Positions 9,866 through 53,747 of a DNA stretch of 64,000 bases are shown one piece after another; the first letter of the stretch is position 1, and the number at the start of each line of letters is the position of its first letter. Origin of the DNA: a virus (taxonomy: Duplodnaviria; Caudoviricetes); the IMG/VR virus record IMGVR_UViG_2571042740_000001, positions 10,801 to 74,800 of that record; one strand, written 5' to 3'. The translations under genes and the position numbers were made by a program. The notes under the pieces are model-generated. The model saw nothing but the letters and a program-made list of their open reading frames with translations, ran no database searches and was not told the origin of the DNA.

Positions 9866-11220
9866 GTCGTCACCTCCACAATATCCGCCAGTGCTGTCTC
9901 AACTCCGGAGAGGGCTTCCTCAACAGCAGAAAGCCTTGAGAGAATATCCGAGATACTCGTCCTGCACCCCTGCATATCATAGAGGATCTCAGTCTTGAAG
10001 CGCTCAAATACTCCCTCATTGACACCCACACGCTCAGTCAGATTCATGGCTGTAGTATATGCATCGTTCCAGCGAGTGACGTGGGATTCCGTGATACTGT
10101 TCAGCGTCGTAAGGTTGTGATGCCAGTGGGCCTGTCCGACAACTGTTGCGATGGATGCGATATCATCAAGCATTTCCTGTGTGATGCCGTCCAGCACTGC
10201 CTTGTTTGTATGCGAATGCGACTGTGCGGAGACTTCGCTCAGACCTGTAGACAGCCCATGCAGAGCGCTTGCGGTTGAAGCCTGAAAAGCAGCTTGATCA
10301 CGCATATACTGTTCTGTGATGGTATCCAGCACATCCTTGTTGTTATGTGTATGCGCAGCAGAACTGATCGGAAGAAGTGCTTCCCGGATATCATGAATAT
10401 CATAGGTTGTTGCATCCTCAAACTGCTGCAAGCCCTGCAGGTCAGCAAGTAGCGCCGCCGTCAGTGCATTCAGCACATCGAGATTCGCATGGCTGTGCGT
10501 ACTCGGTCTGAGGTTCTCCACAGCTTCGTTCAATGTCTGAATCTCGTACTGTGTTCTGTCCTCAAACTGCTGCAGGTCGTCAAGCTCCTGCAGAAGTTCA
10601 GGTGTGATTGCATCGAGCGTTTCCTTGTTATCGTGGCTGTGTGCCTCTTCTGCAACGGGAGCGATCTCACGCTCGATGATCGTTGTGACCTCAGATGTTT
10701 TCGGGTACTCCGACATATCCGGCGTGATGCCGTCCTTGCCCTTCAGACTTTCCAGCCACTCCTCTTCAGTGCCGACATAGCCGTGCTCCACAGCGATTTC
10801 ATAGGCACTCTTGCCGTCCAGTCCATGCTCTGCATCCTCGATACGCTTCAGAAGCTGCGTATACAGATCAGGTGTTGGCGGGATGGGCGGATCATCACCC
10901 TCAAAGCCGGATTCACGAATATTCAGCGTAACCGGAACAGTTGTTGCTCTCACGGTTGTATCGGATTCCGTATCGTAGCCGAATACAGCCATTTTTGCCG
11001 CACCTGCGTGAAGCTCCGCAGGCAGATACAAAGTCGTTCCATCCGTGCCGAGCACAACGGAATACACCTCATCACACTGCGAAAACTGCACGACCTTGTG
11101 AAAACGCTTCCAATCGCCGTCAAATGTGAATTTGAACTGCACATACTGAATCTGGTGGTCCGCAAGCACTTCACGTTCAATGATCTCAATGCTCTGGTTC
11201 TTTACAAGGAATTTCCACAT
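9862..11220 (-). CDS. Tail fibre / upper baseplate-like protein with HxH-N repeats
   Basis: N-terminal baseplate-like domain, GKSAYEIAV..G motif, five H.H.N...L..(I/L)T repeats. Confidence 0.75.
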   Translation of the reverse strand: MWKFLVKNQSIEIIEREVLADHQIQYVQFKFTFDGDWKRFHKVVQFSQCDEVYSVVLGTDGTTLYLPAELHAGAAKMAVFGYDTESDTTVRATTVPVTLNIRESGFEGDDPPIPPTPDLYTQLLKRIEDAEHGLDGKSAYEIAVEHGYVGTEEEWLESLKGKDGITPDMSEYPKTSEVTTIIEREIAPVAEEAHSHDNKETLDAITPELLQELDDLQQFEDRTQYEIQTLNEAVENLRPSTHSHANLDVLNALTAALLADLQGLQQFEDATTYDIHDIREALLPISSAAHTHNNKDVLDTITEQYMRDQAAFQASTASALHGLSTGLSEVSAQSHSHTNKAVLDGITQEMLDDIASIATVVGQAHWHHNLTTLNSITESHVTRWNDAYTTAMNLTERVGVNEGVFERFKTEILYDMQGCRTSISDILSRLSAVEEALSGVETALADIVEVTT

Positions 11221-30076: not shown

Positions 30077-30207
30077 GTTAATGTGAGGTTATCATCTCAC
30101 ATATATGAGATGGTAGGCTCGTATCCCCCACAGTTATTGGGGGTAAAACTAAAGTTTTCTATTAATCTGAGATGATTTTGCTCACATTTGAGTTGGTGGT
30201 ATTAATT

Positions 30208-31176
30208 ATGGATAATATGTATTGGCCGGTATATAAAAATATCGAAAGAGAGTTTTTAAAAATTGCTGAATATATTAATATTTGTGACGAGCAGTTGAAA
30301 GTATATTCGTTTCATATTGCTGATTTAATTATTAGATGCGCAATTGAAATAGAGGCTATTTCAAAAGAATTATATAAAAGATTGGGCGGAAATATGAACC
30401 CAGTAGATGAGAATGGAAAAACAAGAGACTTATATTTTGATACGGATTGTTTAGGACTCTTAGAAGAAAAATGGGGCATCAGTAAAAAGAAGGTAAAAGT
30501 CTCTGCATTAGAAGTGTTTTTGACTAGAGAAGAAAATATAATTCTTACTCCTTTGAAAAAATCGAATAAGAGGGGATCAAGTGGCTCACAATGGAAAAAG
30601 GCGTATCAAGCATTAAAGCATGACAGGCGAAATTCACTAAAATGCGCAACTATTGAAAATTTAATTTCTTCAATGGCTGCCTTATTTATTCTTAATTTGT
30701 ATTATAAAGATGAGACATCTGATCTTGGAAGATTATATATGAATGATAGAACATTTGATAGTAGAGCCGGCTCAGACATCTTTAATGCATATGTAGTATC
30801 TGCAACGACTTTAAGAATGGAACTAGAAATGGATGATTTAAATATAATAAATATAGATGAAGAAAAGAGGAAAGAATCCATTTTTATTATAAAATACACT
30901 GACAGCACATACCGTGAAATGCATAGAGCTTTTTGCTTAGATTATTATGAGACCAAAAGTAACTTTGACAAATCAGAAGTTATACAAAAATATGTGGCAG
31001 AACATCCTGAATCCAAGGAGAAGTCTATGAACGAGATTTGCATTGAAGCTGGAGGACATGAATTATTATGCAATATTTTTGTTAATAGGCATTCTTTAAA
31101 TTCAAAAAACTATAGGACAGAAGTTATCGTTAATAAAAATGAGGATATATATCAAAAATTAAAATACATAGATTAA
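30208..31176 (+). CDS. AT-rich moron, hypothetical (HEPN-like; possible defence protein)
   Basis: Low GC; ADLIIRCAIEIE and WKKAYQALKHDR motifs; likely start MDNMYW. Confidence 0.75.
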   Translation: MDNMYWPVYKNIEREFLKIAEYINICDEQLKVYSFHIADLIIRCAIEIEAISKELYKRLGGNMNPVDENGKTRDLYFDTDCLGLLEEKWGISKKKVKVSALEVFLTREENIILTPLKKSNKRGSSGSQWKKAYQALKHDRRNSLKCATIENLISSMAALFILNLYYKDETSDLGRLYMNDRTFDSRAGSDIFNAYVVSATTLRMELEMDDLNIINIDEEKRKESIFIIKYTDSTYREMHRAFCLDYYETKSNFDKSEVIQKYVAEHPESKEKSMNEICIEAGGHELLCNIFVNRHSLNSKNYRTEVIVNKNEDIYQKLKYID

Positions 31177-31345
31177 TATTTATCAATACGGATGGTTGAA
31201 GAATAATCATTATATAAATGATAGGAGCAACAATTTCGCAATCCATTTAATAATTGACATTAGCAACGCAATGCAGAAAATTGGAGGAGCGTAGGAATAC
31301 TACTCACTAAGCAAGACTTTATTACTATCACAGAATACATAACGA

Positions 31346-31373
31346 GGCAGAGGCCCCTTTCGGGGGTTCTGCC
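31346..31373. terminator. GC-rich hairpin at the end of cassette 2
   Basis: ggcagaggcccc-tttc-gggggttctgcc. Confidence 0.55.
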
Positions 31374-32463: not shown

Positions 32464-32492
32464 TTGACAGACCTTTCCCAATTTGATATAAT
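32464..32492 (+). promoter_or_regulatory. Consensus sigmaA promoter for moron
   Basis: TTGACA-N17-TATAAT with TG. Confidence 0.85.
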
Positions 32493-32525: not shown

Positions 32526-32855
32526 ATGGATGAGAAAAAACTAAACCCATTTGAGATATTGAAACAGTATTCATCATATGGTCATAATAGTGGTGAACGT
32601 TATCAGGCCCATGTTTTGGGCACAACATGTGACAAGAATAATTATAACGCGATTCTCTTTGTTTGTTTACAGATTGATGTCAATCGAAATTATGCAGAAA
32701 TCATCATAGAGGGAGATGCACAGTATTTCAATTACAGTTTTAAATCCTCTTATTCAACCGACAATAGTGCATTCAAATTGATAAACAGAACACTTATCAT
32801 TAAAGGAACAGATAAATTCGGCAACAACATAACACTTGAAATAACTGAAAAATGA
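32526..32855 (+). CDS. Small AT-rich moron, hypothetical
   Basis: GGAGGT SD before ATG 32526; consensus promoter. Confidence 0.75.
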   Translation: MDEKKLNPFEILKQYSSYGHNSGERYQAHVLGTTCDKNNYNAILFVCLQIDVNRNYAEIIIEGDAQYFNYSFKSSYSTDNSAFKLINRTLIIKGTDKFGNNITLEITEK

Positions 32856-32936
32856 GTGCGGAACGGAGGTATGTGTCTTGGTACACTAACCTCCGTTTTT
32901 TACTATCAGTCCTATTATCCTATCTGCAGTTCAATA

Positions 32937-33290
32937 TCAATCGTCGAGAGGAATCGGCATCAGGATGTTGCCGACCAGTACGAAATCGTATGCCTGCCGG
33001 AAGAACTCCGTGTATTTCTCGGTCAGCTCCTGCGGCAGGTCGGTGAAGTCATCCTCGCCCAAACCGCAAAGGAAGAACGTACCCTTGATGACACCGTAGC
33101 CTTTGATTGGGCGGTTCCATTCCTGCTCCGGATGGTAGAGGGCTTCCTCCTCGCACACCAGTGCGACCGGATCATCGAAGGGGTAAATCGCCTGAATGTA
33201 TCCGCCGACCGTCTGCTGCAGGCTGTCAAGCTCTCCGCTGATCTCCTTTGCGTAGGGGCGCTTTCCCGGTTCAACAACTAAAATGTTCAT
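32937..33290 (-). CDS. DUF3846-like protein (cassette 4)
   Basis: ILVVEPGK.PY, LQQTVGGYIQ, IKGTFFLCG. Confidence 0.8.
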   Translation of the reverse strand: MNILVVEPGKRPYAKEISGELDSLQQTVGGYIQAIYPFDDPVALVCEEEALYHPEQEWNRPIKGYGVIKGTFFLCGLGEDDFTDLPQELTEKYTEFFRQAYDFVLVGNILMPIPLDD

Positions 33291-33335
33291 GTGAATGCTC
33301 CTTTGTGTTTATTCCGCTTCTCTTGCGGTAGTGAC

Positions 33336-33364
33336 ATATTAACTCTGAACCGAGGATATATCAA
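33336..33364 (-). promoter_or_regulatory. Cassette promoter P4
   Basis: TTGATA-N17-TAATAT. Confidence 0.85.
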
Positions 33365-33425
33365 GCATTATCGGCAAAATAAATGTGACAAACATCGCGG
33401 CGGAAATGCCGCTGAATTGTACATC

Positions 33426-33530
33426 GCACAAGAGCCGTACACGTGCGCTGTGTGGGGCTGGTTACCGAAAGGGATACCGTTTGGAGGATATCCGTCCCGC
33501 GCCACACGTTGCAACGTGGCGGCTCTGTGC
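33426..33530. repeat. Long imperfect hairpin, copy A (candidate structured RNA)
   Basis: gcacaagagccg...gtgtgg / ccacac...cggctctgtgc arms; inner ccgaaaggg..ttggaggata.ccgtcccgc shared with copy B. Confidence 0.7.
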
Positions 33531-33533
33531 GCC

Positions 33534-33737
33534 TTATTCTTCGCCTTCGTACTTCTCGTGGATGATGCCGAGAATCTTGTCCTGTTCCTCACGTCCGACG
33601 CCGATGCTTTCAAGTGCCTCACGCGTTCCGCAGTCGGGGCAGATCGGGCTGTTATCCACGCGGGAAAGGGCTGGTCGGGCGGTATACGCCTGCCCGCATT
33701 TCGGGCAGATGCGCGGCTCGTTGTTGCGGTCTTTCAT
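33534..33737 (-). CDS. Small zinc-finger protein
   Basis: CPKCG...CPDCG; overlaps the GGCT stop. Confidence 0.75.
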   Translation of the reverse strand: MKDRNNEPRICPKCGQAYTARPALSRVDNSPICPDCGTREALESIGVGREEQDKILGIIHEKYEGEE

Positions 33738-34198
33738 CGCTGTACCTCCTTTGCGCTGATTTCGTAGGCGGCATCGAGGAACTTGGTATCGAAGCCGAAG
33801 TTCCGGTAGCCTTCCTCGCAGGTGCGGATGTAGGCAAGCGACGGAATGCCGAGGCTGCGTTCCTCATGCATGATGTATACGAAGGCGGTCAGCTTCTTGG
33901 TCTTGCCACTTGCCAGCTTCACCGGCAGGCGGACTTCCTTCTTGTAGTAGAAGGTCGGGCAGCCCTCGTAGGCATCCAGCCGTTTCTCGTCGGCTGCGGT
34001 GACCTCCCAGACCGCAATCGGAACGATGCCGTTCTTCTTCGGTTCAATGGTCAGGTACGCGCCTGTCTTGCTGCCCTTGTAAAGCAGCTCGTAATCGGGA
34101 ATCACCGTGATCCCGATGGGCTTTGCGCCGGGGCAGCGGTACCGCATCTGGCGGATGTTCAGGTTCGAGCCGTAGGCAAGGTAGTACTTCTTTTCCAT
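33734..34198 (-). CDS. Gamma-glutamylcyclotransferase (AIG2-like) protein
   Basis: YLAYGSNL..QM..RCP, LDAYEG.P..Y. Confidence 0.9.
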   Translation of the reverse strand: MEKKYYLAYGSNLNIRQMRYRCPGAKPIGITVIPDYELLYKGSKTGAYLTIEPKKNGIVPIAVWEVTAADEKRLDAYEGCPTFYYKKEVRLPVKLASGKTKKLTAFVYIMHEERSLGIPSLAYIRTCEEGYRNFGFDTKFLDAAYEISAKEVQR

Positions 34199-34276
34199 GT
34201 CAATCGTCCTTTCCGAAGGAAGTCTCCTTCTACCACCCTGAGCCGCCCGTAGGCGGCAGGTGGGGAAAGGCGGCAG

Positions 34277-34471
34277 TTACTTTTCCGCCTTGCCCAGTTC
34301 GTATGCCTTGCGGAGCATCTCTCGGATGCCCCAGACGCTCACCTCCGGGAAGTCATCGGTGTCGTTCCAGCGGGTGTCCAGCCCGCCGCGCTGTTCCAGT
34401 GCGTAGTCCGCTTTCATTGCGATCTGCTCCAGCTTCTTGTCGGTTTCCGTTCCCCATTCGATGTTGCTCAT
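34277..34471 (-). CDS. Second DUF6900-like protein (cassette 5)
   Basis: EQRGGLDTRWNDTDDFPEVSVWGIREML.KAYELG. Confidence 0.75.
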   Translation of the reverse strand: MSNIEWGTETDKKLEQIAMKADYALEQRGGLDTRWNDTDDFPEVSVWGIREMLRKAYELGKAEK

Positions 34472-34523
34472 TGCTCGTTCCTCCGTGTTTGTTTTTCCGG
34501 TCGTTTTCCGTTCCGGTAGTCAC

Positions 34524-34552
34524 ATATTAACTCTTTTCGGGGAGAATAGCAA
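34524..34552 (-). promoter_or_regulatory. Cassette promoter P5
   Basis: TTGCTA-N17-TAATAT. Confidence 0.85.
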
Positions 34553-34624
34553 GCCGCTAAATGTACAAAACATCACGGGGGAAAATGTGCCATTCTTTGT
34601 GTAGTATATGCCTTGCCGTTGTTT

Positions 34625-34714
34625 GCGCCGTGCGCGCCCGTGTGCGGGCTTTTTCCGAAAGGGGCAGTTACTTGGAGGATACCCGTCCCGCCCCACACGG
34701 GGCGCTGTGGGCGA
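34625..34714. repeat. Long imperfect hairpin, copy B (candidate structured RNA)
   Basis: gcgcccgtgtg / cacacggggcgc arms with the same inner motif as copy A. Confidence 0.7.
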
Positions 34715-34749
34715 CTGTTTCGCCGCCCTTGCCCGTGGCGGCAGACCGG

Positions 34750-35694
34750 TTAAGGTCTGCCGAATCGGAAGGCGTTGTCGCCGGTAAGGTTCTGCGTCAG
34801 GGTTTCTCTTGCGGTGGCGAACTCGTCGCCAATGAAGCCCATTCTCATCAGCCAAGTCCGCATCGCGAACTTTTTGTTTTCTTTCTGCTGTTCCTTCGGG
34901 CTTGCGCTGCGCAGGTCTTTTGCCATCTGGCTCATTGCGAGGCAAAGCTGAATGTAGCTCTTGAGCTTGCCTGCGTGAAGCCCGTTCTGCTTGCCGCCTG
35001 CGGGCTTGTCGAACTGGAAAAGGCGGAATTCAATCGTGCCCTTTGTGAAGGTGGCGTGGAGGTTCAGCATATGGTAGCGGCTGTCGTTGTAGTGGTGGGT
35101 TCTGCCGTAGTCGCATCCCTGTGCGCCGTACCAGATGTCTGCAAGCTGCGCCATCGTGGTGGGCTTCTTTTTGTTGAGCTGCTGCAGGAAATTCGGGTTT
35201 ACCGTTCTGCAGTAGCGGTTCATTCGGCTGCTGTCAACCTTGATTGCTTCGGCGATCAGCGTTTCGTGGCTTGCCATCAGGTTTGCGAGGTTTCTCAGGC
35301 TCTGCGGTGTGTGTCCCGCTGCGCCGATGTGAATGTGAACTCCGCAGCCCCTTGTGTAGTCGCTCTTTGCGCCCGCCTTGCGAAGGCGTCTGATCAGCTC
35401 CTGCAGGGTTTCGATGTCCGCGTAGTGCAGGATCGGTGTGACCAGTTCGCACTTTTCGCTGTCCGGTCCGCTGATGCTGCAGTCGCGCTGGAATTTCCAC
35501 TCGCGTCCCTGCGCGTCCCAAGCGCTGTAGGTTTCGTAGCCGTTGCGGTGTGCGGTGTACTCGCTGCGGTTTGTTCCGAAGAACTCGGCGGCGAGCTTTG
35601 CGGCAGCCTTGCGGGTGATGTTGTTCATCTCAACCTCAACCCCGATCGTCTGCTCCTTCATTCTGTTGATCTGTGCCTGTGTCTTTGCGTTCAT
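34750..35694 (-). CDS. Phage putative amidoligase (COOH-NH2 ligase type 2) (cassette 6)
   Basis: IGVEVE, D.SI, ELVTP, CGVHIH, SRY..LN, TIEFRLF. Confidence 0.9.
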   Translation of the reverse strand: MNAKTQAQINRMKEQTIGVEVEMNNITRKAAAKLAAEFFGTNRSEYTAHRNGYETYSAWDAQGREWKFQRDCSISGPDSEKCELVTPILHYADIETLQELIRRLRKAGAKSDYTRGCGVHIHIGAAGHTPQSLRNLANLMASHETLIAEAIKVDSSRMNRYCRTVNPNFLQQLNKKKPTTMAQLADIWYGAQGCDYGRTHHYNDSRYHMLNLHATFTKGTIEFRLFQFDKPAGGKQNGLHAGKLKSYIQLCLAMSQMAKDLRSASPKEQQKENKKFAMRTWLMRMGFIGDEFATARETLTQNLTGDNAFRFGRP

Positions 35695-35745
35695 GGTGGT
35701 ATCCTCCTGTTTGGTTTTTGGTGTGTTTTCCCTTTCGGTAGTCAC

Positions 35746-35774
35746 ATATTAACTCTAAACCGAGGATATATCAA
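35746..35774 (-). promoter_or_regulatory. Cassette promoter P6
   Basis: TTGATA-N17-TAATAT. Confidence 0.85.
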
Positions 35775-35918
35775 GCCGCTAAAACCACAGAAATACGAGG
35801 AAAATACAGCCTTGATGATTGTGTATTTTACATTCTTGACACACTTGATTTTCTATGGTAATATTGGGTACGATGGAATAGGTTCTCACATTTTCCGGCG
35901 CCCCCGGAGGCTGTAAAA

Positions 35919-36149
35919 TCAGCCGCCGGAGATGACCTCGAACTCGTCTGCGCCTTCGATCAGCGCAAGGCTTCTGCCGTTGTCCCACTTCATATGAATG
36001 TTGCCTGCATCGTCGATGATCGCAACCGTTCCGGTTGTTCCGGGCGGCACGGGCGCGATGTCGTCCGCCATGCGAATCAGTCGGATGCGTGTACCTACGG
36101 GATAACGCTCGCGCAGCGCCTGAAGCTGTCTTTCATTCGGAAATTGCAT
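35919..36149 (-). CDS. DUF4314-like protein
   Basis: [31 protein letters not shown]. Confidence 0.82.
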
Positions 36150-37164
36150 CGTTTTCTTCCTCCTCGCTATTCTGAGCATCACGCTTTGCCTTCTGCTTCG
36201 CTTCCCAGCGCTCACGCTCCGCTTCATTGCGGAATGCGGTATGCCCGGAAAGGTTCTCCATCAGGCGCTTGCGGTCTGCCTTGCAGTCTTTTCCGTTCAG
36301 CCCAAGGCGGATCAGCCAGACGCGGAGCGAATACTTCTCGTTGCTGTCATCGACATCCTTTGCCTGAACACGCTTCTGGGTAATTGCCATCTTGTTCATA
36401 GCTGCGGCAAGCTTCATGAAAGTCTGCACATGCTCAGCATCCTGTGCCTGACCGAAGCCGTCGAAGGTGAGCTTGTCATCATCGAAGGATATTCCCATCA
36501 GCGGAGTACTCATCTCACCCCATTCCCTAACATATGAAATCAATTCATTCACACTCCGGAATACCTTCTCATCAAGGATCGAATCCACCAGTTCCTTGTC
36601 TGCAAAAAATGTACCGCCGGTTGCTTTGGAGATCAGAGGTCCGCGGGAGTGGATCATACAGATCAGATTTGTGAGGGACTGTACTGTATGCGCATTCAGG
36701 GAAAAAGAGATTCTTGTGCAAAGATACTCATCTGATTCAGATTCCGCATTTTTGTAAACTGAATCCCGGCTTTCATCCATATCGCTTTCCGGAATGATCT
36801 CAGGCTCCGATTCTGACACTTCTGCAGGCGATTCTTCGATGAAGGGCGGCTCATCTTCAAGCTGTTCATCATCACCCCATTCTTCTGTGGTTTCAGCCGC
36901 AAGACTGATTTCCGGAGGTGTCTCCACATGTGTATCGTCTTCGCTGATCAGCGCACCGATCATACCTTCTTTTGTAAGAATGCCGATAATCAGTTCATCT
37001 GCATCATTCGTTGTTGTCAGTTCGCCGTCTTTCTCAACCGTGAATTCCCCGACTTCAAAAGCGCATCTCGGTACAAAGGTATATCTCGCTTTCTTCCTCG
37101 TAAGCTCTTCCAGTCTCTTTACCAGTTCTTTGCGGTTTGGAATCTTCTGTGCATAAGTTTTCAT
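36133..37164 (-). CDS. Phage 'virulence-related'-type protein with amidoligase-like C-terminal domain (cassette 7)
   Basis: N-terminal RKELV...Y...P..AF.VG; C-terminal [14 protein letters not shown]...NLSGHTAFR. Confidence 0.75.
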
Positions 37165-37231
37165 ATGTGTACGCTCCTTTTTCATTATTGCCGTCCAACC
37201 GTCCTATACGGTCTTCCCCGGCGGTAGTCAC

Positions 37232-38669: not shown

Positions 38670-38969
38670 TCATTCCTCCCGTATATACATCTGCCGCAGC
38701 TCTGCGGCTCTTTTGGTGTTCGCATCTTTCAGCACCGTGACATCACGGAGCGTTTCTTCACTCAGAGGCTTGCCCTTCAGCTTTTCGGCAAGTGACCGGT
38801 ACTTGCGGATACTCCGGCGGAGTGCTGCATCGGTCACAGACACGATATACGCTTTGCCGCAATAGTCACAATTGAAGAAGCTGTATTCGATCTCTCCCTC
38901 ACGCTGCGTTTTCGGCTCCGGCACAAAGGCACAGCCGCAGGCATCGCAGCGGACATTCTGTTTTGTCAT
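38670..38969 (-). CDS. Hypothetical protein with two CxxC motifs
   Basis: CDAC...CDYC; coupled to its neighbours. Confidence 0.7.
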   Translation of the reverse strand: MTKQNVRCDACGCAFVPEPKTQREGEIEYSFFNCDYCGKAYIVSVTDAALRRSIRKYRSLAEKLKGKPLSEETLRDVTVLKDANTKRAAELRQMYIREE

Positions 38970-39433
38970 ATCGGTCTGCCTCCTTTGAGTCTGAGTATCC
39001 GCTGATTGCGGCTGCCGCGGAACTGAAGCGAGATATCCTTCTGTTCCAGCAGGAACGGCCCGTCCACAAGCACATCAACATAACGGAGAATTTCATTGTT
39101 CCGAAGTATCTCGTAAGTGTATCCGGAGAACAGCCAGGTGTCCGAATTCGGACACTCCATCTTTACCCGTTTCAGAAACGGTATAAGCACACGCTCGTTT
39201 TCTTCCTCGCATGGTTCACCGCCGAGAACAGAAAGTCCCTGTATCCAAGAAGGACGCAGGGATTCGATGATCTCATCTTCAGTTTCCTTTGTGAAGGGCT
39301 TCCCGTACCCGAAATCCCATGCCTCTGGATTATGACAGCCTTTGCAGTGATTCCGGCACCCGGATACAAACAGTGACACACGCACACCGTAACCGTTGGC
39401 AATGTCGTTTTTATTCAGACCGCAGTAATTCAC
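38966..39433 (-). CDS. nrdG: Anaerobic ribonucleotide reductase activating enzyme
   Basis: SGCRNHCKGCHN radical-SAM motif, GGEP, RGSRNQR. Confidence 0.95.
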   Translation of the reverse strand: MNYCGLNKNDIANGYGVRVSLFVSGCRNHCKGCHNPEAWDFGYGKPFTKETEDEIIESLRPSWIQGLSVLGGEPCEEENERVLIPFLKRVKMECPNSDTWLFSGYTYEILRNNEILRYVDVLVDGPFLLEQKDISLQFRGSRNQRILRLKGGRPI

Positions 39434-41571
39434 AGGTGCATCACCCGATCCTTGATCTCAGCGGTGCGCCCCTGATTCCAGAACTGCGTTCCAAGGTAAC
39501 CGCAGGTGCGGCGGCATACATTCAGTGTCCGCTGATCGCGGTTGCCGCAGTTCGGGCATTCCCAGATCAGCTTGCCGTCCTCCTCGGTGATCTGTATCTC
39601 GCCGTCATACCTGCAGACCTGACAGTAATCAGATTTCGTGTTCAGCTCAGCATACAGGATGGTTTCGTAGATATGCCGCATCAGCGCCAGTACCGCTGGG
39701 ATGTTGTTCTGCAGATTCGGTACTTCCACATAGGAGATTGCACCGCCGGGAGAAAGCGCCTGAAACTCCGCTTCAAAGGTCAGCTTTGAAAACGCATCGA
39801 TCGGCTCGGTGACATGAACGTGATAGCTGTTTGTGATATAGCTTTTATCCGTCACATGAGGAATGATGCCGTGCCGCCTTTGCAGACATTGTGCAAATTT
39901 GTATGTGACGCTCTCCATCGGTGTGCCGTACAGCGAGAAGCTGATATTAGTCTCGGCTCTCCATTTGCTGCACTTGTCATTGAGAAATCTCATGACCGCA
40001 AGAGCGAAGGTCTTACCGTCCGGCTCTGTATGTGAACAGCCTGTCATGCGGTATGTCATCTCTGCGATGCCTGCATAGCCGAGGGAGATGGTGCTGTAAT
40101 TGTTGTACAGCAGATCATCAATGATCTCGCCGTCCTTCAGTCTTGCCAGCGCACCGTTCTGCCAGAGGATCGGTGCAACATCGGACGGCGTTCCTTTGAG
40201 CCGTTCGTGCCTGCACATGAGAGCCTTACGGCACAGTTCGCAGCGTTCATTCAGAAGCTGCCAGAACTTATTCTCGTCACCGCCTGCGCTGCAAGCGATA
40301 TCCACAAGGTTGATGGTTACAACACCCTGATTAAAACGCCCGTAATACTTGTGATCGTCCGAAGGCGTGAGAAAACTTCGGCAGCCCATGCAGGCATACA
40401 CATCACCCTTCAGCTGTTTCATCACCTTGGCGGAGATGTAGTCGGGAACCATGCGCTTTGCCGTACACTTGGCGGCAAGCTCAGTCAGGTAGTAATATTT
40501 TGTTCCGGGTTGGATATTGTCTTCATCGAGAACATAGATCAGTTTCGGGAATGCTGGTGTGATCCAGACACCCTTTTCGTTTTTCACACCTTCGATACGC
40601 TGAAGCAGCGTTTCTTCGATGGTGAGCGCTAGGTCATCTCTGGTCTGTCCCTCCGGCACCTCGTCCAGATACATGAACACCGTTACGAACGGCGTCTGTC
40701 CGTTGGTGGTGAGCAGCGTATTGATCTGGTACTGAATGGTCTGCACGCCGCGCTTGACTTCCCGGCGTACTCGCTTCTCAACGATGTGGCTGATCTCATC
40801 CTCAGACAGTTTGCAGCCGCAGTCGCAGTTCACATCCTCGAATACTTCAGCTCGTATCTTCTGCCTGCTGACATCCACGAAAGGCGCAAGATGCGCCAGT
40901 GATACAGTCTGACCGCCGTACTGATTCGATGCGACCTGCGCAATGATCTGCGTTGCGATATTGCAGGCGGTCGAAAAGCTGTGCGGCTTCTCGATCATTG
41001 TACCGGAAACCACTGTGCCGTTCTGCAGCATATCCGCCAGATTGACCAGACAGCAGTTGTGCATCGGCTCAGCGATATAGTCCAGGTCGTGAACATGGAT
41101 GATACCCTCATCATGAGCGGCGATCACATCTGCCGGGAACAGGAAGCGCCGACAGATGTCTCTGCTGACTTCGCCTGCCATATAGTCCCGTAGCGTGCTG
41201 TTGATGATCGGGTTCTTATTGGCGTTCTCCTGTTTTGCCTCCTCGTTGTTGCGTTCGAGCAGGCTCAGGATCTTGCCGTCTGTGGTGTTCATCCTGCGCT
41301 GCTGTTCATGCAGCAGTCTGTATTCGCTATAGTGCCGTGCAAGTTTGTACGCTTCGGCCTTGTCCAGTTCATCGAGAACCATGTCCTGGACTTCTTCGAC
41401 ATGGACAGGTCTTGCAAGGGCGCTGCAGCGTTTTTCTACATTACTGACAATGAATCCGATCACGGTATCGCTGATCTTGCCATCGACCTCTGCGTTTGCA
41501 GCTGTGATCGCGGCACGGATCTTTTCGCAGTCGTAGGGAACCTCACACCCGTTTCTTTTTATAATTTTCAT
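39430..41571 (-). CDS. nrdD: Anaerobic ribonucleoside-triphosphate reductase (class III)
   Basis: ATP cone, HNCCL, MGCRS, TNSYH, CPNCG, RTCGYL glycyl-radical motif. Confidence 0.96.
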   Translation of the reverse strand: MKIIKRNGCEVPYDCEKIRAAITAANAEVDGKISDTVIGFIVSNVEKRCSALARPVHVEEVQDMVLDELDKAEAYKLARHYSEYRLLHEQQRRMNTTDGKILSLLERNNEEAKQENANKNPIINSTLRDYMAGEVSRDICRRFLFPADVIAAHDEGIIHVHDLDYIAEPMHNCCLVNLADMLQNGTVVSGTMIEKPHSFSTACNIATQIIAQVASNQYGGQTVSLAHLAPFVDVSRQKIRAEVFEDVNCDCGCKLSEDEISHIVEKRVRREVKRGVQTIQYQINTLLTTNGQTPFVTVFMYLDEVPEGQTRDDLALTIEETLLQRIEGVKNEKGVWITPAFPKLIYVLDEDNIQPGTKYYYLTELAAKCTAKRMVPDYISAKVMKQLKGDVYACMGCRSFLTPSDDHKYYGRFNQGVVTINLVDIACSAGGDENKFWQLLNERCELCRKALMCRHERLKGTPSDVAPILWQNGALARLKDGEIIDDLLYNNYSTISLGYAGIAEMTYRMTGCSHTEPDGKTFALAVMRFLNDKCSKWRAETNISFSLYGTPMESVTYKFAQCLQRRHGIIPHVTDKSYITNSYHVHVTEPIDAFSKLTFEAEFQALSPGGAISYVEVPNLQNNIPAVLALMRHIYETILYAELNTKSDYCQVCRYDGEIQITEEDGKLIWECPNCGNRDQRTLNVCRRTCGYLGTQFWNQGRTAEIKDRVMHL

Positions 41572-43471: not shown

Positions 43472-44566
43472 TTAAATTTCCCACGGAAGCCCCGATTTTC
43501 CGAAGTGTCCGTATGCAGAAACCTTGTTATAATCAACATCGAGTAGACCGAGACTCTCGATAATCCCTCTCGGTGTGAGGTCGTAGTTCTCACGGACATA
43601 CTGGTTGATAAACTCCGCATCCTGATGCTCTGTTCCGAAGGTCTCCACATACACGGACACAGGTTCGGCCACACCAATGGCGTATGCGATCTGCACTTCT
43701 GCCTTGTCTGCATATCCAGCACTGACGATATCCCTTGCGATCTTGCGGGCGGCATACGCACCGCTGCGGTCAACTTTAGTCGGATCCTTGCCGGACATCG
43801 CACCGCCGCCAATGTGTCCGATTCCGCCGTAGGTATCGCAGGCGAGTTTGCGTCCGGTCACGCCGCAGTCTGCAAAAGAGCTGCCGAGAACGAATCTGCC
43901 GGTCGGATTGACCAGTTTCTCAAAGTCAGTATTCAGTCCGTACTCTGTCGCTGTTCTCACCATCAGCTTTTCAATGATCGGTCTGAAATCCTCAACATCC
44001 ACATCGCGGATATGCTGTACCGAACAGAGGAAGGTCGTGATCCTGCCGCTGTCATAATCAAAGCTGACCTGCGCCTTGGCATCGGCTTTCAGCATGCGGC
44101 AGGGGTACGCTTTCAAAAGTTCCAGAAATCTGGTTGCGATCACATACGGGATCGGGAGCAGTTCCGGCGTTTCATTGGTCGCATAGCCGTACATCATGCC
44201 CTGATCTCCGGCACCGCCGGTATTCACACCGAGGGCGATATCGTTACTCTGATGATCGACCAGAATCGCAATGTCCAGATCATCGGAGGTGAAGTCCAGC
44301 TTATAGTCAAGTCCGGCATCGCTGTTCTCTGCACCGCCGTTGTTGATGCAGTCAAACACCTGCTGCACCAGAGCCTTGTAGTCCGGCTCATGGGTACTGG
44401 TCAGCTCACCTGCAATGACAAGGCATCGGTTCTTGAAAAGGCACTCGATCCCAACACGGCTGTCGCGGTCATGCTGAAGGCAGTCGGTCACAATTGCATC
44501 TGCGATCTGGTCACAGATCTTGTCGGGATGTCCTGCTGAAACTTGTTCACTTGTAATGATTCTCAT
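43472..44566 (-). CDS. metK: S-adenosylmethionine synthetase
   Basis: SEQVSAGHPDK, GAGDQG, GGGAMSGKDPTKVDRS, YGHFG. Confidence 0.93.
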   Translation of the reverse strand: MRIITSEQVSAGHPDKICDQIADAIVTDCLQHDRDSRVGIECLFKNRCLVIAGELTSTHEPDYKALVQQVFDCINNGGAENSDAGLDYKLDFTSDDLDIAILVDHQSNDIALGVNTGGAGDQGMMYGYATNETPELLPIPYVIATRFLELLKAYPCRMLKADAKAQVSFDYDSGRITTFLCSVQHIRDVDVEDFRPIIEKLMVRTATEYGLNTDFEKLVNPTGRFVLGSSFADCGVTGRKLACDTYGGIGHIGGGAMSGKDPTKVDRSGAYAARKIARDIVSAGYADKAEVQIAYAIGVAEPVSVYVETFGTEHQDAEFINQYVRENYDLTPRGIIESLGLLDVDYNKVSAYGHFGKSGLPWEI

Positions 44567-44567
44567 A

Positions 44568-44756
44568 TTATTTTTCCTCCTGATTTTTCTTTTCAAATAC
44601 GCACAAGAGTGTGCAGAATACATCCGAGCTTTCCAGCACCGTAGTCTGTGTAAGCTCAAATTCCGGATTCTTATCCAGCTTTTCGTTGATCACATCTGCG
44701 ATTGTCTTACCGTATTCCTTGTTGACGGTACCACGCAGAATTGCTGTTCTCTGCAT
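44568..44756 (-). CDS. Small hypothetical protein
   Basis: GGAGGT SD before MQRTAIL; abuts metK. Confidence 0.55.
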   Translation of the reverse strand: MQRTAILRGTVNKEYGKTIADVINEKLDKNPEFELTQTTVLESSDVFCTLLCVFEKKNQEEK

Positions 44757-45055: not shown

Positions 45056-47491
45056 TCACTCCTCATCGTCCAGAGGTACGAGATCCATTCCCGGTTCTTC
45101 TCCGCTTACCCAGGTGACATCGTTCACAAGTGACAGCGGATTCATATTGCCGGTCGTTGTCTGCTTCCACGGTCTGCGCTTGACAACGAGATATTCCAGA
45201 GAGAGCCGCTTATAGAAATTCTGAGAACTCTCATACTTGCATCCGTTGTCGCTGCACCATGTCTTGTAGTGACTGTATACCGCCGAGGCCTTGATCTCCG
45301 AGCCTTTTTCCTTTTTCAGGCACTGACGCATAAACTGCGCGATGCGGTCGGACTCCACACGATACTCCTCGGTAGCAGCCTTCACTTCCTCCGGCTCGTC
45401 AAGCCCCTCTGCCTTGTACAGGCGATAACCCTCGATACACCAGTTCAGGATGCCGGAGAGGTTCTCCGGCTGCATCAGTGTAGTCTTCAGCGTCTTGTCC
45501 TGTTCGTGGTCCTCGAAATGTCGGGTAAACGGAATGATCTTCAGTCTGCCGGATTCAAACAGTGTGCGTTCAGTGACATTGGGCAGATGGTTGGTGTCGA
45601 TGAAGATCTTCGCCTGCATATGGAATTCAAAATATCCCTCGTACAGAAAACGTGCTGTGATGCTGCCATTACCGGTGAGCTGCTTTGTCAGTGAGGCATT
45701 GATCGTCAGCTTTTGCTCCATTTCGGAAATGCCGACAAATCTTGCGCCGGCGAGACGTGCGACATCATCAGAGGAACCGTTGGACTGCCCGCGGAAATAG
45801 TTTGTGGCAAGCATATCCGGCTTGGCAGAACGGCCGTATTCTCCCATAACACGCAGGATCGTTTCGATGGTCGTGGTCTTGCCGTTTCTGGTCGTAGGGC
45901 CGAACATGATGAACAGACATTCCAGCGATGTATCGCCGGAGAGCGAGTAGCCGATTGCTTTCTGAAGATAGCGTGCAACATTCTTTCTGCCGACCATGAC
46001 CTCATCCACAAACTGGATCCAGCGCGGGCAGACAGCATTCGGGTCGTAATTGATGTGGCTGATCTTCGTAATGAGGTCCTTTGGGTCATGCTCATGAAAT
46101 TCCAGTGTCCGCAGATCGAGGGTGCCGTTCTCAAGGTTCAGTAGATAGACATTCGCATCAAAAGCGGACATCCTGATCGGATACACAGACTTTGCGTCCT
46201 CCACCATCGTCTTGCGGTTCTTTCGCATCTGGAGCTTCTGAACTCGCTTGATATATCTGTTGCGGGTGTCCTCGTCCCTGATCTGCAGTGCAAACGTATA
46301 CAGCAGATCGGCGAGGTGCTTTGCAAGCTCGGCTACGGCGAGAGCATTTTCGTCCGGCTGCCAGACCTTGCCGTCATAGACATACCAGACATTGCGGTCG
46401 CCGTTGAACCGTGCGATGGGTTTGAAATAATCGGCGAAAGCGTTGCCGATGCCGATCTCGTCGCGCTGATAGCGCGGATTCGTATGCGGCTGCATTTCGT
46501 CAAGTTTGAGGGTGATGCGGGAGAGATCGGGACGGAAACCTGCGTGTTCCTCCACTTCTTCTTCGTCCAATGCTTCAAAGTCATCCTCCGCCGATGTGTC
46601 GAAGATCGGTGTATAGATCTCAGATGTCGATGCGATGGCATTACGGATGGTGATCTGACCGTAAGTTCTGTCACCGGTCATACGATCCCACTTGTCACGC
46701 ATCAGACCCGATGAACGGAAGATACGGTCGATCTGCTCCTCCACATTGCCGCACCAGAAGCAGAGCATGGAAACAAACGCCATATCTGCATCAGATTGCG
46801 AATCATAGCCTTCCTCCCAGTGTCCCTCATAAAGCGCTTTGAACTTGTCACCGGAAGCAGAGGCAGATGCGTGCGCGATGACACCCTCGTCATCCAGATA
46901 GGATGCAGGCTCGATGGTCTTATTTGATACACGGGTGCTGCGCTTCATGAAGGTGTCGAGCAGATTGCGGAGCGTATCATCGTCACGCTCGACTGTGCCG
47001 GGGCGGAACATATCACCTGTGACCGTCACAAAGCGGTTGGTCGTTCCGGGCAGATAGACCTCCAGACCGTGCTTACGGTTGTTGATGTAGTACACTGTCT
47101 TATCGTAGGCGAAGTCGGGGCTGAGTTTGAAGAAGCCACGCAGTCCGGTTCCGGAGGGAGAGCGTTCAAAATATGCTGTGCTGAAGATACCGAGAATGGA
47201 TGCTGCCACATCATTCAGGCTTCCGTCCTCACGGATACAGTGGTCAATATCAATGGCACCAATGCCCTCGCTGACACGATAACCGATACCGTCCCAGCCG
47301 CCGATGGCGTATGCCTTCATCGCGGTCTTGAAGTCGGTGAAGGTGTCCGGCTCGTTTGTTTTGGCCATCTGTCTTGTTCTCGGGTCATAAGGCACCTTGG
47401 TCGGTCTGCCGCTGCGTTTTTCCAGTTTCCAGACACAGAAGGATGCCGACTGCTTCAGTGCGTCCGGGATATTTACAAAATTTACAGGCAT
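45056..47491 (-). CDS. Primase-polymerase / P4-D5 family helicase (NrS-1-like)
   Basis: IDIDHC, ERSPSGTG, SQSDAD; Walker A GPTTRNGKTT, ISE, DTNHLP. Confidence 0.9.
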   Translation of the reverse strand: MPVNFVNIPDALKQSASFCVWKLEKRSGRPTKVPYDPRTRQMAKTNEPDTFTDFKTAMKAYAIGGWDGIGYRVSEGIGAIDIDHCIREDGSLNDVAASILGIFSTAYFERSPSGTGLRGFFKLSPDFAYDKTVYYINNRKHGLEVYLPGTTNRFVTVTGDMFRPGTVERDDDTLRNLLDTFMKRSTRVSNKTIEPASYLDDEGVIAHASASASGDKFKALYEGHWEEGYDSQSDADMAFVSMLCFWCGNVEEQIDRIFRSSGLMRDKWDRMTGDRTYGQITIRNAIASTSEIYTPIFDTSAEDDFEALDEEEVEEHAGFRPDLSRITLKLDEMQPHTNPRYQRDEIGIGNAFADYFKPIARFNGDRNVWYVYDGKVWQPDENALAVAELAKHLADLLYTFALQIRDEDTRNRYIKRVQKLQMRKNRKTMVEDAKSVYPIRMSAFDANVYLLNLENGTLDLRTLEFHEHDPKDLITKISHINYDPNAVCPRWIQFVDEVMVGRKNVARYLQKAIGYSLSGDTSLECLFIMFGPTTRNGKTTTIETILRVMGEYGRSAKPDMLATNYFRGQSNGSSDDVARLAGARFVGISEMEQKLTINASLTKQLTGNGSITARFLYEGYFEFHMQAKIFIDTNHLPNVTERTLFESGRLKIIPFTRHFEDHEQDKTLKTTLMQPENLSGILNWCIEGYRLYKAEGLDEPEEVKAATEEYRVESDRIAQFMRQCLKKEKGSEIKASAVYSHYKTWCSDNGCKYESSQNFYKRLSLEYLVVKRRPWKQTTTGNMNPLSLVNDVTWVSGEEPGMDLVPLDDEE

Positions 47492-47967
47492 TCGGGATGT
47501 CTCCTTTCAAGGAAAAGCTGTGCAATGACAGCGGTTTCAATACGGTTCATCGCATCGGCATCCGAAATATGCCCTGCATAGCTGCGGAGCGCATGCTTGC
47601 TGACAGTCGTTAGCTGCTCCGCAAGGATCATGGACGGATCCAGATGCTGATGAAGATCGGAAATACTGTCGGGGAACAGATGCGTATGGCACGGCAGCTC
47701 CGGCTTTTTCAGATGCCGCGTCATGGGAACGATATTGACCGTGTCGGCGTGTGCGTTGCCCATATCATTCGAGAGAATGATCACAGGACGAATGCCGCCC
47801 TGCACGCTGGAATCCGGATGACTGCCAAGATCCGCAAACCAGATGTCACCGCGCTGCGGTTTGTGTTCAGTTGTGTGATGCTGCACCGGCGCAGTGATAT
47901 ATTTTCTCGGATCGAAGCCGAGCCCTCTGTGGTATTCTGTTTTCAGGCGTTTATTCTTACGCGCCAT
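47482..47967 (-). CDS. PemK/MazF-family protein
   Basis: RGDIWFADL, QGGIRPVIILSND, IVPMT, LAEQLTTVSK. Confidence 0.88.
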   Translation of the reverse strand: MARKNKRLKTEYHRGLGFDPRKYITAPVQHHTTEHKPQRGDIWFADLGSHPDSSVQGGIRPVIILSNDMGNAHADTVNIVPMTRHLKKPELPCHTHLFPDSISDLHQHLDPSMILAEQLTTVSKHALRSYAGHISDADAMNRIETAVIAQLFLERRHPECL

Positions 47968-48063
47968 AGTTTTCACCTCCGTGGTCTGCGGCGTAACCGA
48001 ATTGTCGCCGCTTTGCCGTCTTTCTGTCGTCAAATAGAGATAGATCATACTGCATGTATAAGG

Positions 48064-53165: not shown

Positions 53166-53747
53166 TCAGTTCAGAAAATCCATATCATCATCGTCAAGCT
53201 CGTCGGCATCATCGCCCTCGACCTCCACAAAATCGGATGCCGCAGTCGGTCTGCCGGCAAGGCGCTCACCGTGACGGACAAGCTGAATGTTCTGGAGTCC
53301 TGCTGCAATGCCCTTGTTACCGGATGCTGCAAAACCGTAGAAGTTGACGCTGACATTGCAGTAATCGCCGCTGCCGCATTCCATCGGGTCGAGAATCGGC
53401 TGCACATGGCGGTCAACGATCTGCGGTGCGTCCTTACTGGTCGCATTGAAGAAGAAATGACCTGCGTAGTTCTCGTCATCGGGGCGGTCAATATCGCCGT
53501 CATGCATGGGCAGTTTGAGATTTGCGGGGATCTTGCCGCTCCACTTCTTCTCCTTGGCAGCTTCCTTCGCAGCCTCGATCGCTTTCTTGATCTTGGCGAG
53601 GGTAGCCTTGTCATCCTTGGGGATCAGCAAAGAGACGGAATACTTTTCATCGCTGCCGTTGATGCTCTTGGGCTCCCAGATGTTTGCAAAAGAGATGCGG
53701 CAGGGCACGATGACCTTCGTTGCGGGTGCTGTATTGTTGTTTGCCAT
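53166..53747 (-). CDS. DUF2815 ssDNA-binding protein
   Basis: KYSVSLLIPK, DGD..R, GLQNIQ..R.GE; acidic tail. Confidence 0.88.
   Translation of the reverse strand: MANNNTAPATKVIVPCRISFANIWEPKSINGSDEKYSVSLLIPKDDKATLAKIKKAIEAAKEAAKEKKWSGKIPANLKLPMHDGDIDRPDDENYAGHFFFNATSKDAPQIVDRHVQPILDPMECGSGDYCNVSVNFYGFAASGNKGIAAGLQNIQLVRHGERLAGRPTAASDFVEVEGDDADELDDDDMDFLN

Follow-up and report, generated by a model that had tools for sequence, protein, structure and literature searches.

Two paralogous hairpins in predicted 3' untranslated regions of a Ruminococcus-type prophage as a candidate antisense repressor of its amidoligase mRNA

Why should a prophage carry, behind two of its small accessory transcription units, a long hairpin whose loop is complementary to the beginning of an amidoligase mRNA? 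The question is raised by a stretch of 64,000 nucleotides (nt), positions 10,801 to 74,800 of the IMG/VR virus record IMGVR_UViG_2571042740_000001, which is called the window in what follows. Element A lies in the predicted 3' untranslated region (3'UTR) of an operon for DUF6900, GGACT and zinc-ribbon (Zn-ribbon) proteins, and element B in that of the amidoligase gene itself; the positions of all features are collected in Table 1. The answer to which we give an even chance is that the two elements form a 3'UTR fold-back or antisense repressor that is specific to the amidoligase and does not act on the whole array. What A and B do is in every instance inferred.

In the proposed mechanism A and B would be paralogous structured RNA elements in the 3'UTRs of gene-sense (minus-strand) array transcripts. 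After its 3'UTR has been transcribed, B would fold back onto its own amidoligase mRNA, where pairing with the Shine-Dalgarno (SD) sequence would block ribosome loading and pairing with the 5' end would cap that end. Element A, which stands behind the functionally linked GGACT-Zn-ribbon operon, would do likewise to the amidoligase mRNA, acting either in cis where transcription has read through or, as an antisense RNA carried by the 3'UTR, in trans. In both cases the amidoligase gene would be the specific target.

The elements were first described in a sequence-only reading of this DNA, and a direct check of the sequence found all of its coordinates and letters correct. The amidoligase leader begins 7 nt past its promoter, the +1 (35739/35740) being inferred from the distance to the -10 box, and its SD ends 3 nt before the ATG. 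Read on the minus strand, the leader contains TACCGAAAGGGA at its start and GGAGGATACC at the SD. The plus strand of A reads TACCGAAAGGGA and GGAGGATA, and that of B reads CCGAAAGGG and GGAGGATACC. The complements to the mRNA 5' end (9 nt in B, 12 nt in A) begin at the predicted +1/+2. When both strands of the window were searched for CCGAAAGGG-N(4-30)-GGAGGATA, three matches were obtained, two of them on the plus strand (A and B) and one on the minus strand (the amidoligase leader); not one of 100 dinucleotide shuffles contained even a single match. The shared core is as originally written, with an N7 spacer and TCCGTCCCGC in A and an N8 spacer and CCCGTCCCGC in B. The two elements are paralogues (repeats D7 and D19, with reciprocal nhmmer matches). 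They lie just 3' of cassette genes, with 3 nt between A and the stop codon of the Zn-ribbon gene (33534) and 36 nt between B and that of the amidoligase gene (34750), and their outer arms differ in sequence yet pair. The last statement holds for A compared with B, and a third version of the outer stem was found in two related phage loci, L004 and L034 (L-numbers denote such loci). A small plus-strand open reading frame (ORF) behind the SD-like core was also considered and ruled out, as a start codon is absent.

Both regions fold as long imperfect hairpins. The long imperfect stem leads to a short apical stem (GGGUA/URCCC) and to a loop that holds a CCUCC anti-SD with flanking bases, and a second unpaired stretch on the 3' side, CCCUUUCGGUA, is complementary to the amidoligase mRNA at its very start. 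In all types it is the apical loop, 8-15 nt in length, that contains the CCUCC. The anti-SD of A is positioned in and beside its apical loop, and the 12-nt complement of the mRNA 5' end occupies an internal loop immediately 3' of the apical stem. Element A is more stable than shuffled sequences (RNA z = -4.5 on the plus and -3.4 on the minus strand; -51.2 kcal/mol for the sense RNA). In an alignment of 51 sequences the stems were tested by hand, and only the inner stem (GUGUGG../..CCACAC plus two pairs) and the five-pair apical stem were used because MAFFT places the outer stems of A- and B-type copies in different registers. Over 13 stem pairs, 94.9% of the cells are standard-paired, versus 29-61% when the 3' partner columns are slid by 1-3 positions. 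Nearly all of the stem variation on the sense strand is G-C to G.U or U-A to U.G. One apical pair alternates between G-C, G.U and A-U, the one GC/AU compensatory pair, and in one sub-lineage three adjacent bases have changed from CAC to UGU with all three still wobble-paired. Five pairs are canonical in 45-51 of the 51 rows on the sense strand and in only 31-42 on the antisense strand. Because it is only on the gene-sense strand that the G.U wobbles leave the inner and apical stems paired, a minus-strand RNA is favoured, and the hairpins are better explained when they are read in this way, as had been suggested. The view that they do not belong to a described RNA family has also stood: Rfam covariance models gave no match at the gathering score in the window, and the only two matches within 33250-35850 were at chance level (E 0.75 and 3.6).

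Are the antisense segments free to pair? They are unpaired with a probability of about 0.5-0.6, and to open one of them takes 3.7-5.4 kcal/mol, compared with duplex energies of -11.3 to -19.4 kcal/mol (for A, 4.9 kcal/mol to open the anti-SD and -19.4 kcal/mol for the duplex of the anti-5'-end segment). The opening costs are small beside the duplex energies, so the segments are not locked in internal stems, which the sequence-only reading had named as an outcome that would refute it. The amidoligase mRNA was folded as 1141 nt, from the inferred +1 to just past B. In this fold the SD is predicted to pair with the anti-SD of B in a 10-nt perfect duplex (p 0.99-1.0) and the mRNA 5' end with the second segment of B (p 0.98-0.99), which agrees with the suggestion that B could fold back on its own mRNA (p about 0.98-1.0 for SD and 5' end). 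No terminator-like site was found on the minus strand between the amidoligase stop and B, which lies 36-125 nt after it. In each of 12 loop-shuffled controls none of the 10 SD bases was paired. Among 15 relatives, pairing between SD and 3'UTR is predicted at p 0.57-1.0 in 11 and at no more than 0.38 in the 4 that have no anti-SD loop.

The predicted pairing is specific to one leader. Element B has an energy difference on pairing (ddG) of -17.4 kcal/mol with the amidoligase leader versus -4.1 to -7.0 with the six other leaders of the array. In a fold of the operon-2 mRNA (the DUF6900-GGACT-Zn-ribbon transcript), A pairs with the leader of its own operon at p 0.0, and its CUCC loop bases are unpaired at 0.86-0.94. 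The earlier idea that A or B silences the array as a whole is therefore not supported. In a hypothetical read-through RNA of 2341 nt the amidoligase leader pairs with A instead of B. For A, opening energies were used in place of the RNAcofold ddG, whose value of -5.5 is uninformative because the pairing of a loop with its target while the hairpin stays intact is beyond what RNAcofold can score.

The sequence-only reading had set as its own test whether the core follows the amidoligase leader in homologous phages, and it does so, with lineage-specific complements of 12, 14, 15 and 18 nt. In the type represented by the window, the loops match the 5' end of the leader over 9-12 nt and the SD over 8-12 nt. 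L050 and L053 have a 12-nt match to their own leader, TCGGAGGATACC, that reaches 17 of 18 when the flanking bases are included, and L052 has one of 14 nt (GATTCGGAGGATAC). In L064, TAACTTTGCGGAGGA(TAC) matches over 15 nt in the hairpin behind the amidoligase gene and over 18 nt, exactly, in a second hairpin 3.2 kb away. The match in L079 and L080 (TTTACGGAGGAA, 12 nt) is likewise in the second hairpin, behind the Zn-ribbon gene. L061 and L077 carry an extra G/C in both leader and loop (GGGG/CCCC, 12-13 nt). Divergence of the former anti-5' segment in the L048/L050 type has given it a match to the start-codon region (TGACTGAGA, 8-9 nt). When duplex energies were ranked, a crude and noisy measure, the own leader took rank 0-1 of 18 in 12 of 33 loop-leader combinations.

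A search of related loci with A and B as nhmmer queries gave 86 and 77 hits, which fall on 87 places with 58 distinct sequences, and its conservation extends over dozens of phage contigs. Usually one copy comes immediately 3' of the amidoligase gene and another 3' of the GGACT-Zn-ribbon operon. The relatives have the order amidoligase, hairpin 1, promoter, (DUF6900), GGACT-Zn-ribbon, hairpin 2, promoter, DUF3846; in more distant phages GGACT follows directly after the amidoligase gene and no hairpin is detectable. A pattern scan of genome contigs returned 77 loci, which were judged by eye beside an imperfect automatic filter: about 19 are real elements, in Ruminococcus, Oscillospiraceae and Clostridiales metagenome-assembled genomes (MAGs), and the remainder are chance hits in GC-rich genomes, most of those outside the Clostridia lying in coding sequence. 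Collection of additional loci brought no new lineage except one odd copy, L209. One real copy (L159) comes from a MAG that bears the label Planctomycetota; the short contig on which it sits is probably a mis-binned piece of phage DNA. In the host genome of the present phage (3.65 Mb, 39 contigs) the element is confined to this prophage.

A separate observation concerns the amidoligase promoters. The spacers that separate the -35 from the -10 box in several of them contain 7-11 nt complementary to their own SD region (11 nt in L109). By analogy with T4 gene e, such a complement would mask the SD only in read-through transcripts. Over 59 modules there was no general enrichment (mean 4.22 nt for own and 4.06 nt for cross comparisons), with a pattern that missed leaders of the CGGAGG type.

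Several observations weigh against a repressor. Element B is no more stable than shuffled sequences (z = -0.4 on the plus and -1.55 on the minus strand) and has an alternative fold in which the core lies between two local hairpins. With RNAalifold the mixed alignment of 51 sequences yielded no consensus hairpin (3 pairs, -1.2 kcal/mol). The stem structure that was tested was derived from these same sequences, and the stem changes represent few evolutionary events. The minimum free energy (MFE) of the whole element is on average lower on the antisense strand, the sense strand being the more stable in 21 of 58 copies; this may only reflect the G+U richness of the antisense strand. The co-variation is based on about 4-5 lineages. 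In the L048 type the two complementary segments stand in crossed order, and all 7 of the 33 combinations in which the own leader ranked only 8-14 of 18 belong to it. Several A-type copies carry CCTTG, CCTTA or CCTTC instead of CCTCC and retain about 8 nt of complement displaced by a few bases, and the anti-5' segment of L174 has an uncompensated change. Hairpin 1 of L061, L077, L079 and L097 (4 of 15 relatives) has no anti-SD, and since the hairpin is kept behind the amidoligase gene in these phages the scaffold has some use of its own. Leader and hairpin also travel together as one cassette, so a gene conversion or an inverted copy could have produced the match. A weak point in favour of the repressor is that relatives of the region, both hairpins included, are covered by contigs from four RNA libraries (activated sludge; pig, cattle and sheep gut); such contigs may contain DNA and cannot show strand, ends or expression level, and their uncovered bins are uninformative.

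The known systems that come closest share principles with these elements. The icaR mRNA of S. aureus has a C-rich anti-SD in its 3'UTR that pairs with the SD of the same mRNA, and this pairing blocks initiation and creates an RNase III substrate (PMC3868564). As in that account, B would lie in the 3'UTR of its gene and is predicted to pair with the SD of its own mRNA. Unlike icaR as described there, the present elements are phage-borne, exist as two paralogous copies of which one is behind a different operon, have a bipartite target (SD and extreme 5' end) and are built on a long conserved hairpin scaffold.

In the hok mRNA of plasmid R1 (fbi/tac), the analogy drawn by the sequence-only reading, the 3' end pairs with the very 5' end, and the full-length mRNA is translationally inert. 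The extreme 5' end of the amidoligase mRNA is similarly predicted to pair with a 3' element; in contrast to hok, the gene encodes an amidoligase (PF12224) and not a toxin, the setting is a phage of a Firmicute host, and occlusion of the SD would be direct. Neither a mok-like overlapping frame nor a Sok-like antisense RNA or antisense promoter was seen at the amidoligase leader. In the B. subtilis hbs mRNA, contact between the 5'UTR and 3'UTR reportedly controls access of a ribonuclease, protects the mRNA and couples its stability to translation. The present elements would share with it a contact between the two UTRs of a Firmicute mRNA, and here the SD itself would be masked. Promoter choice frees a sequestered ribosome-binding site (RBS) in T4 gene e, and the same is said of the sigma-B isoforms of B. 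subtilis. The elements would share with these a long-range pairing that masks an RBS in some transcript isoforms only. In those systems the masking sequence is upstream and is skipped by an internal promoter, whereas here it would be downstream, in the 3'UTR.

Could the hairpins instead be mainly the boundaries of mobile cassettes? They would then insulate neighbouring cassettes from each other, whether by attenuating or terminating transcription, by stabilising 3' ends or by serving as RNase III sites, and the leader match would be inherited, an incidental result of common descent or of gene conversion between the repeated promoter-leader modules. We regard this, the main rival, as possible and on balance doubtful. 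Seven near-identical sigma70-like promoter modules (repeat family D1; a consensus scan recovered 5 of the 7 as TTGATA-17-TAATAT) drive the array, each heading a small accessory gene, and A and B are each directly upstream of one of them. The two margins of the 32-nt promoter core (35743-35776) are exactly the points at which contigs from relatives diverge, with loose ends at 35743/35744 in X1, X3, X4 and X9 and at 35775/35776 in X3, X4 and X9. Such divergence, seen in 3-4 runs, is what recombination at the repeated promoter would give. In one contig 35792 is joined to 32937, and gene order differs among related loci. The repeated promoter has the appearance of a junction at which cassettes are shuffled by recombination, in the manner of the PeSLs of T4-type phages. 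A PeSL is described as a promoter with a stem-loop at which transcription terminates and through which shuffling occurs (PMC2839356). The window resembles this published picture in its repeated sigma70-like promoters with stem-loops, its small accessory genes, its plastic phage region and its recombination at repeats. It differs from it in that PeSL stem-loops are terminators in or next to the promoter; the present hairpins measure about 100 nt, are situated 55-90 nt upstream of the -35 box, occur at only 2 of the 7 promoters and carry a target-specific antisense loop. It is also in keeping with boundary elements that in the same phages the promoter spacer (TATCCTCCG...CGGTA) is similar to the core and that hairpins without anti-leader loops hold the same position in L061, L077, L079 and L097. 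An intrinsic terminator is not indicated on the sense strand, where no U-tract directly follows either long stem. A small hairpin downstream of A is a possible 3' end for operon-2 transcripts, and it also lies within the conserved region upstream of the next promoter. Shared ancestry leaves unexplained the lineage-specific, extended matches to the own SD, most clearly in L064 (15 and 18 nt), whose promoter spacer contains no such sequence, and also why the matches are to the amidoligase leader and not to the adjacent one. The comparison as a whole shows principles held in common with icaR, hok and PeSL and no membership in any of these families. The closest mechanism is the 5'-3'UTR anti-SD pairing of icaR together with the fold-back of hok, and the closest genomic setting is the PeSL cassette.

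It is very improbable that the elements act at the level of DNA, as inverted-repeat sites for a recombinase that inverts the amidoligase cassette or for an orientation-independent DNA-binding regulator. Exact inverted repeats of 10-18 bp do flank the gene, and a similar motif is present in the spacer of some amidoligase promoters (11 nt in L109), but the gene is inverted relative to its promoter in none of 78 related loci, four runs gave no strand-changing joints, and no invertase was found among the ORFs that were scanned, which were not all of them. The stem pairing is kept through G.U changes, which matter to RNA and not to duplex DNA, and a protein site would be unlikely to change sequence from lineage to lineage. 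Conjugative-element readings (Frpo-like single-strand promoters, sso/ssi priming sites, attC-like sites) were dropped because the window is a phage, with terminase, portal, capsid and tail genes; the stems also have no -35/-10 boxes.

The alternative offered by the sequence-only reading, that plus-strand transcripts of the hairpins are leader-mimic decoys which titrate a factor that binds the amidoligase leader, is hardly credible now. The plus-strand core does read as a shortened leader, plus-strand folds have the lower average MFE, and a local GC hairpin of B is followed on that strand by TTTTT. Neither A nor the L048 type, whose segments are not in leader order, has this T-run, and the wobble substitutions would become C.A mismatches on the plus strand. 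No convincing plus-strand promoter was found upstream of A or B, the nearest strong ones being at 32464, whose transcript terminates at about 32900, and at 35836, which points away. Chance similarity among GC-rich SD-like sequences, for which the frequency of CCUCC/GGAGG matches and the unremarkable fold of B might speak, can be dismissed with near certainty in view of the bipartite match (3 observed, 0 of 100 shuffles), the 18-nt exact match in L064 and the conservation over dozens of phage contigs.

A wider form of the repressor proposal, which we think improbable, is that these hairpins represent a retargetable class of phage-borne 3'UTR antisense elements, including a trans-acting copy in the GGACT operon that balances ligase against antagonist. 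In such a class a conserved scaffold would carry a loop that evolves to fit the stretch where translation of one partner gene begins, the gamma-glutamyl cyclotransferase operon, when expressed, would throttle translation of the partner amidoligase, and the small Zn-ribbon protein encoded just upstream might be the partner of the RNA. To our knowledge, 3'UTR regulation and mRNA end-to-end pairing in bacteria have a handful of worked examples (icaR, hbs, hok), and from a narrow literature search we know of no such case in a phage of gut or rumen Clostridia. A similarly narrow search on the amidoligase/GGACT/DUF gene set and on phage anti-SD UTR elements returned nothing on these hairpins.

The window is a prophage of the Ruminococcus/Oscillospiraceae type, a tailed one as judged from Pfam scans of its ORFs, and the GenBank labels of related phages are Ruminococcus, Lachnospiraceae, Acutalibacteraceae and similar. 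The minus strand encodes small and large terminase, portal, capsid and tape-measure proteins at about 15.7-29.6 kb, and further minus-strand genes encode a D5-type primase, NrdD/NrdG, a ParB-methylase and S-adenosylmethionine (SAM) synthetase. The array of small accessory genes sits between the replication genes and the terminase; besides the members in Table 1 it holds a longer DUF6900 protein and a 142-amino-acid (aa) ORF.

Table 1. Features of the elements, their proposed target and the surrounding array (positions in the window).
Feature	Position	Strand	Remarks
Element A (HP2), long imperfect RNA hairpin	33426..33530	-	3'UTR of DUF6900-GGACT-Zn-ribbon operon
Anti-SD of A	33483..33490	-	UAUCCUCC on sense RNA (GGAGGATA on plus strand); complements GGAGGAUA of amidoligase leader
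Anti-5'-end of A	33463..33474	-	UCCCUUUCGGUA (TACCGAAAGGGA on plus strand); 12-nt perfect complement of first bases of predicted amidoligase mRNA
Small GC hairpin with U-rich tail	33397..33412	-	14 nt downstream of A; terminator-like site
Element B (HP1), paralogue of A	34625..34714	-	amidoligase 3'UTR
Anti-SD of B	34674..34683	-	GGUAUCCUCC (GGAGGATACC on plus strand); 13-nt apical loop closed by stem GGGUA/UGCCC
Anti-5'-end of B	34655..34663	-	CCCUUUCGG (CCGAAAGGG on plus strand); pairing probability 0.98-0.99
Amidoligase 5' leader (proposed target)	35695..35740	-	5' segment 35729-35740 (TACCGAAAGGGA), SD 35698-35707 (GGAGGATACC)
Amidoligase promoter	35746..35774	-	TTGATA-17-TAATAT; one of 7 D1 copies
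Other D1 promoter copies	29907, 31763, 32318, 33318, 34506, 37214
Promoters with anti-SD in spacer	35752-35768		also L109 2932 and the L052 and L047 promoters
Amidoligase gene	34750..35694	-	PF12224, E 2.4e-56; ATG at 35694
Operon 2	33534..34554	-	ends in element A; promoter module 34506-34554
DUF6900 (operon 2)	34277-34471	-	Pfam
GGACT (operon 2)	33734-34198	-	Pfam
Zn-ribbon (operon 2)	33534-33737	-	Pfam
DUF3846	32937-33290	-	array member
350-aa ORF	36133-37185	-	array member along with DUF4314; no Pfam match

Other features of the region were noted in passing. Minus-strand genes at 47482-48048, 43472-44659, 38966-41571 and 53166-53747 encode a PemK/MazF-like protein, SAM synthetase, NrdG with NrdD and an Enc34-type single-stranded-DNA-binding protein. 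The C-terminal part of the 350-aa ORF resembles the C-terminus of the amidoligase (reciprocal tblastn, 27-43% identity over 50-122 aa, in several loci). The leader of GGACT, at 34199-34276 on the minus strand and downstream of the amidoligase gene in L065-L108, is conserved across distant phages in the order hairpin, GGTGGTAGAAGG, variable self-complementary stretch, CTTCGGAAAGGA, start codon, and it may be a structured translational control element. On the plus strand an AT-rich gene with no Pfam match (ATG 32527 to 32855) interrupts the minus-strand array; it is preceded by a perfect TTGACA-17-TATAAT promoter with TG (32464-32492), ends in a clean hairpin and T-run (about 32859-32900) and looks like a moron. 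As this gene has its own terminator, A or B was rejected as its terminator. A strong promoter-like TTGACA-17-TAATAT with TG lies at 35836-35864 on the plus strand, in the spacer between DUF4314 and the amidoligase promoter, and is oriented antisense into the DUF4314 gene. A plus-strand ORF of 334 aa (30172-31176), of low GC content (about 39%) and without a Pfam match, separates the array from the terminase promoter, and after it comes a hairpin at about 31344-31370 that resembles a bidirectional terminator.

What would such an element mean for these phages? Even if the hairpins were only insulators, the array would still be a clear Gram-positive counterpart of the shuffling cassettes of the T4-type PeSL. 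The loop and its target leader vary together between phage lineages and form a natural variant series, so the idea can be tested directly with reporters and compensatory mutations. Amidoligase and GGACT form a widespread, uncharacterised module of phages and plasmids, and it is the dosage of this module that the phage appears to control tightly.

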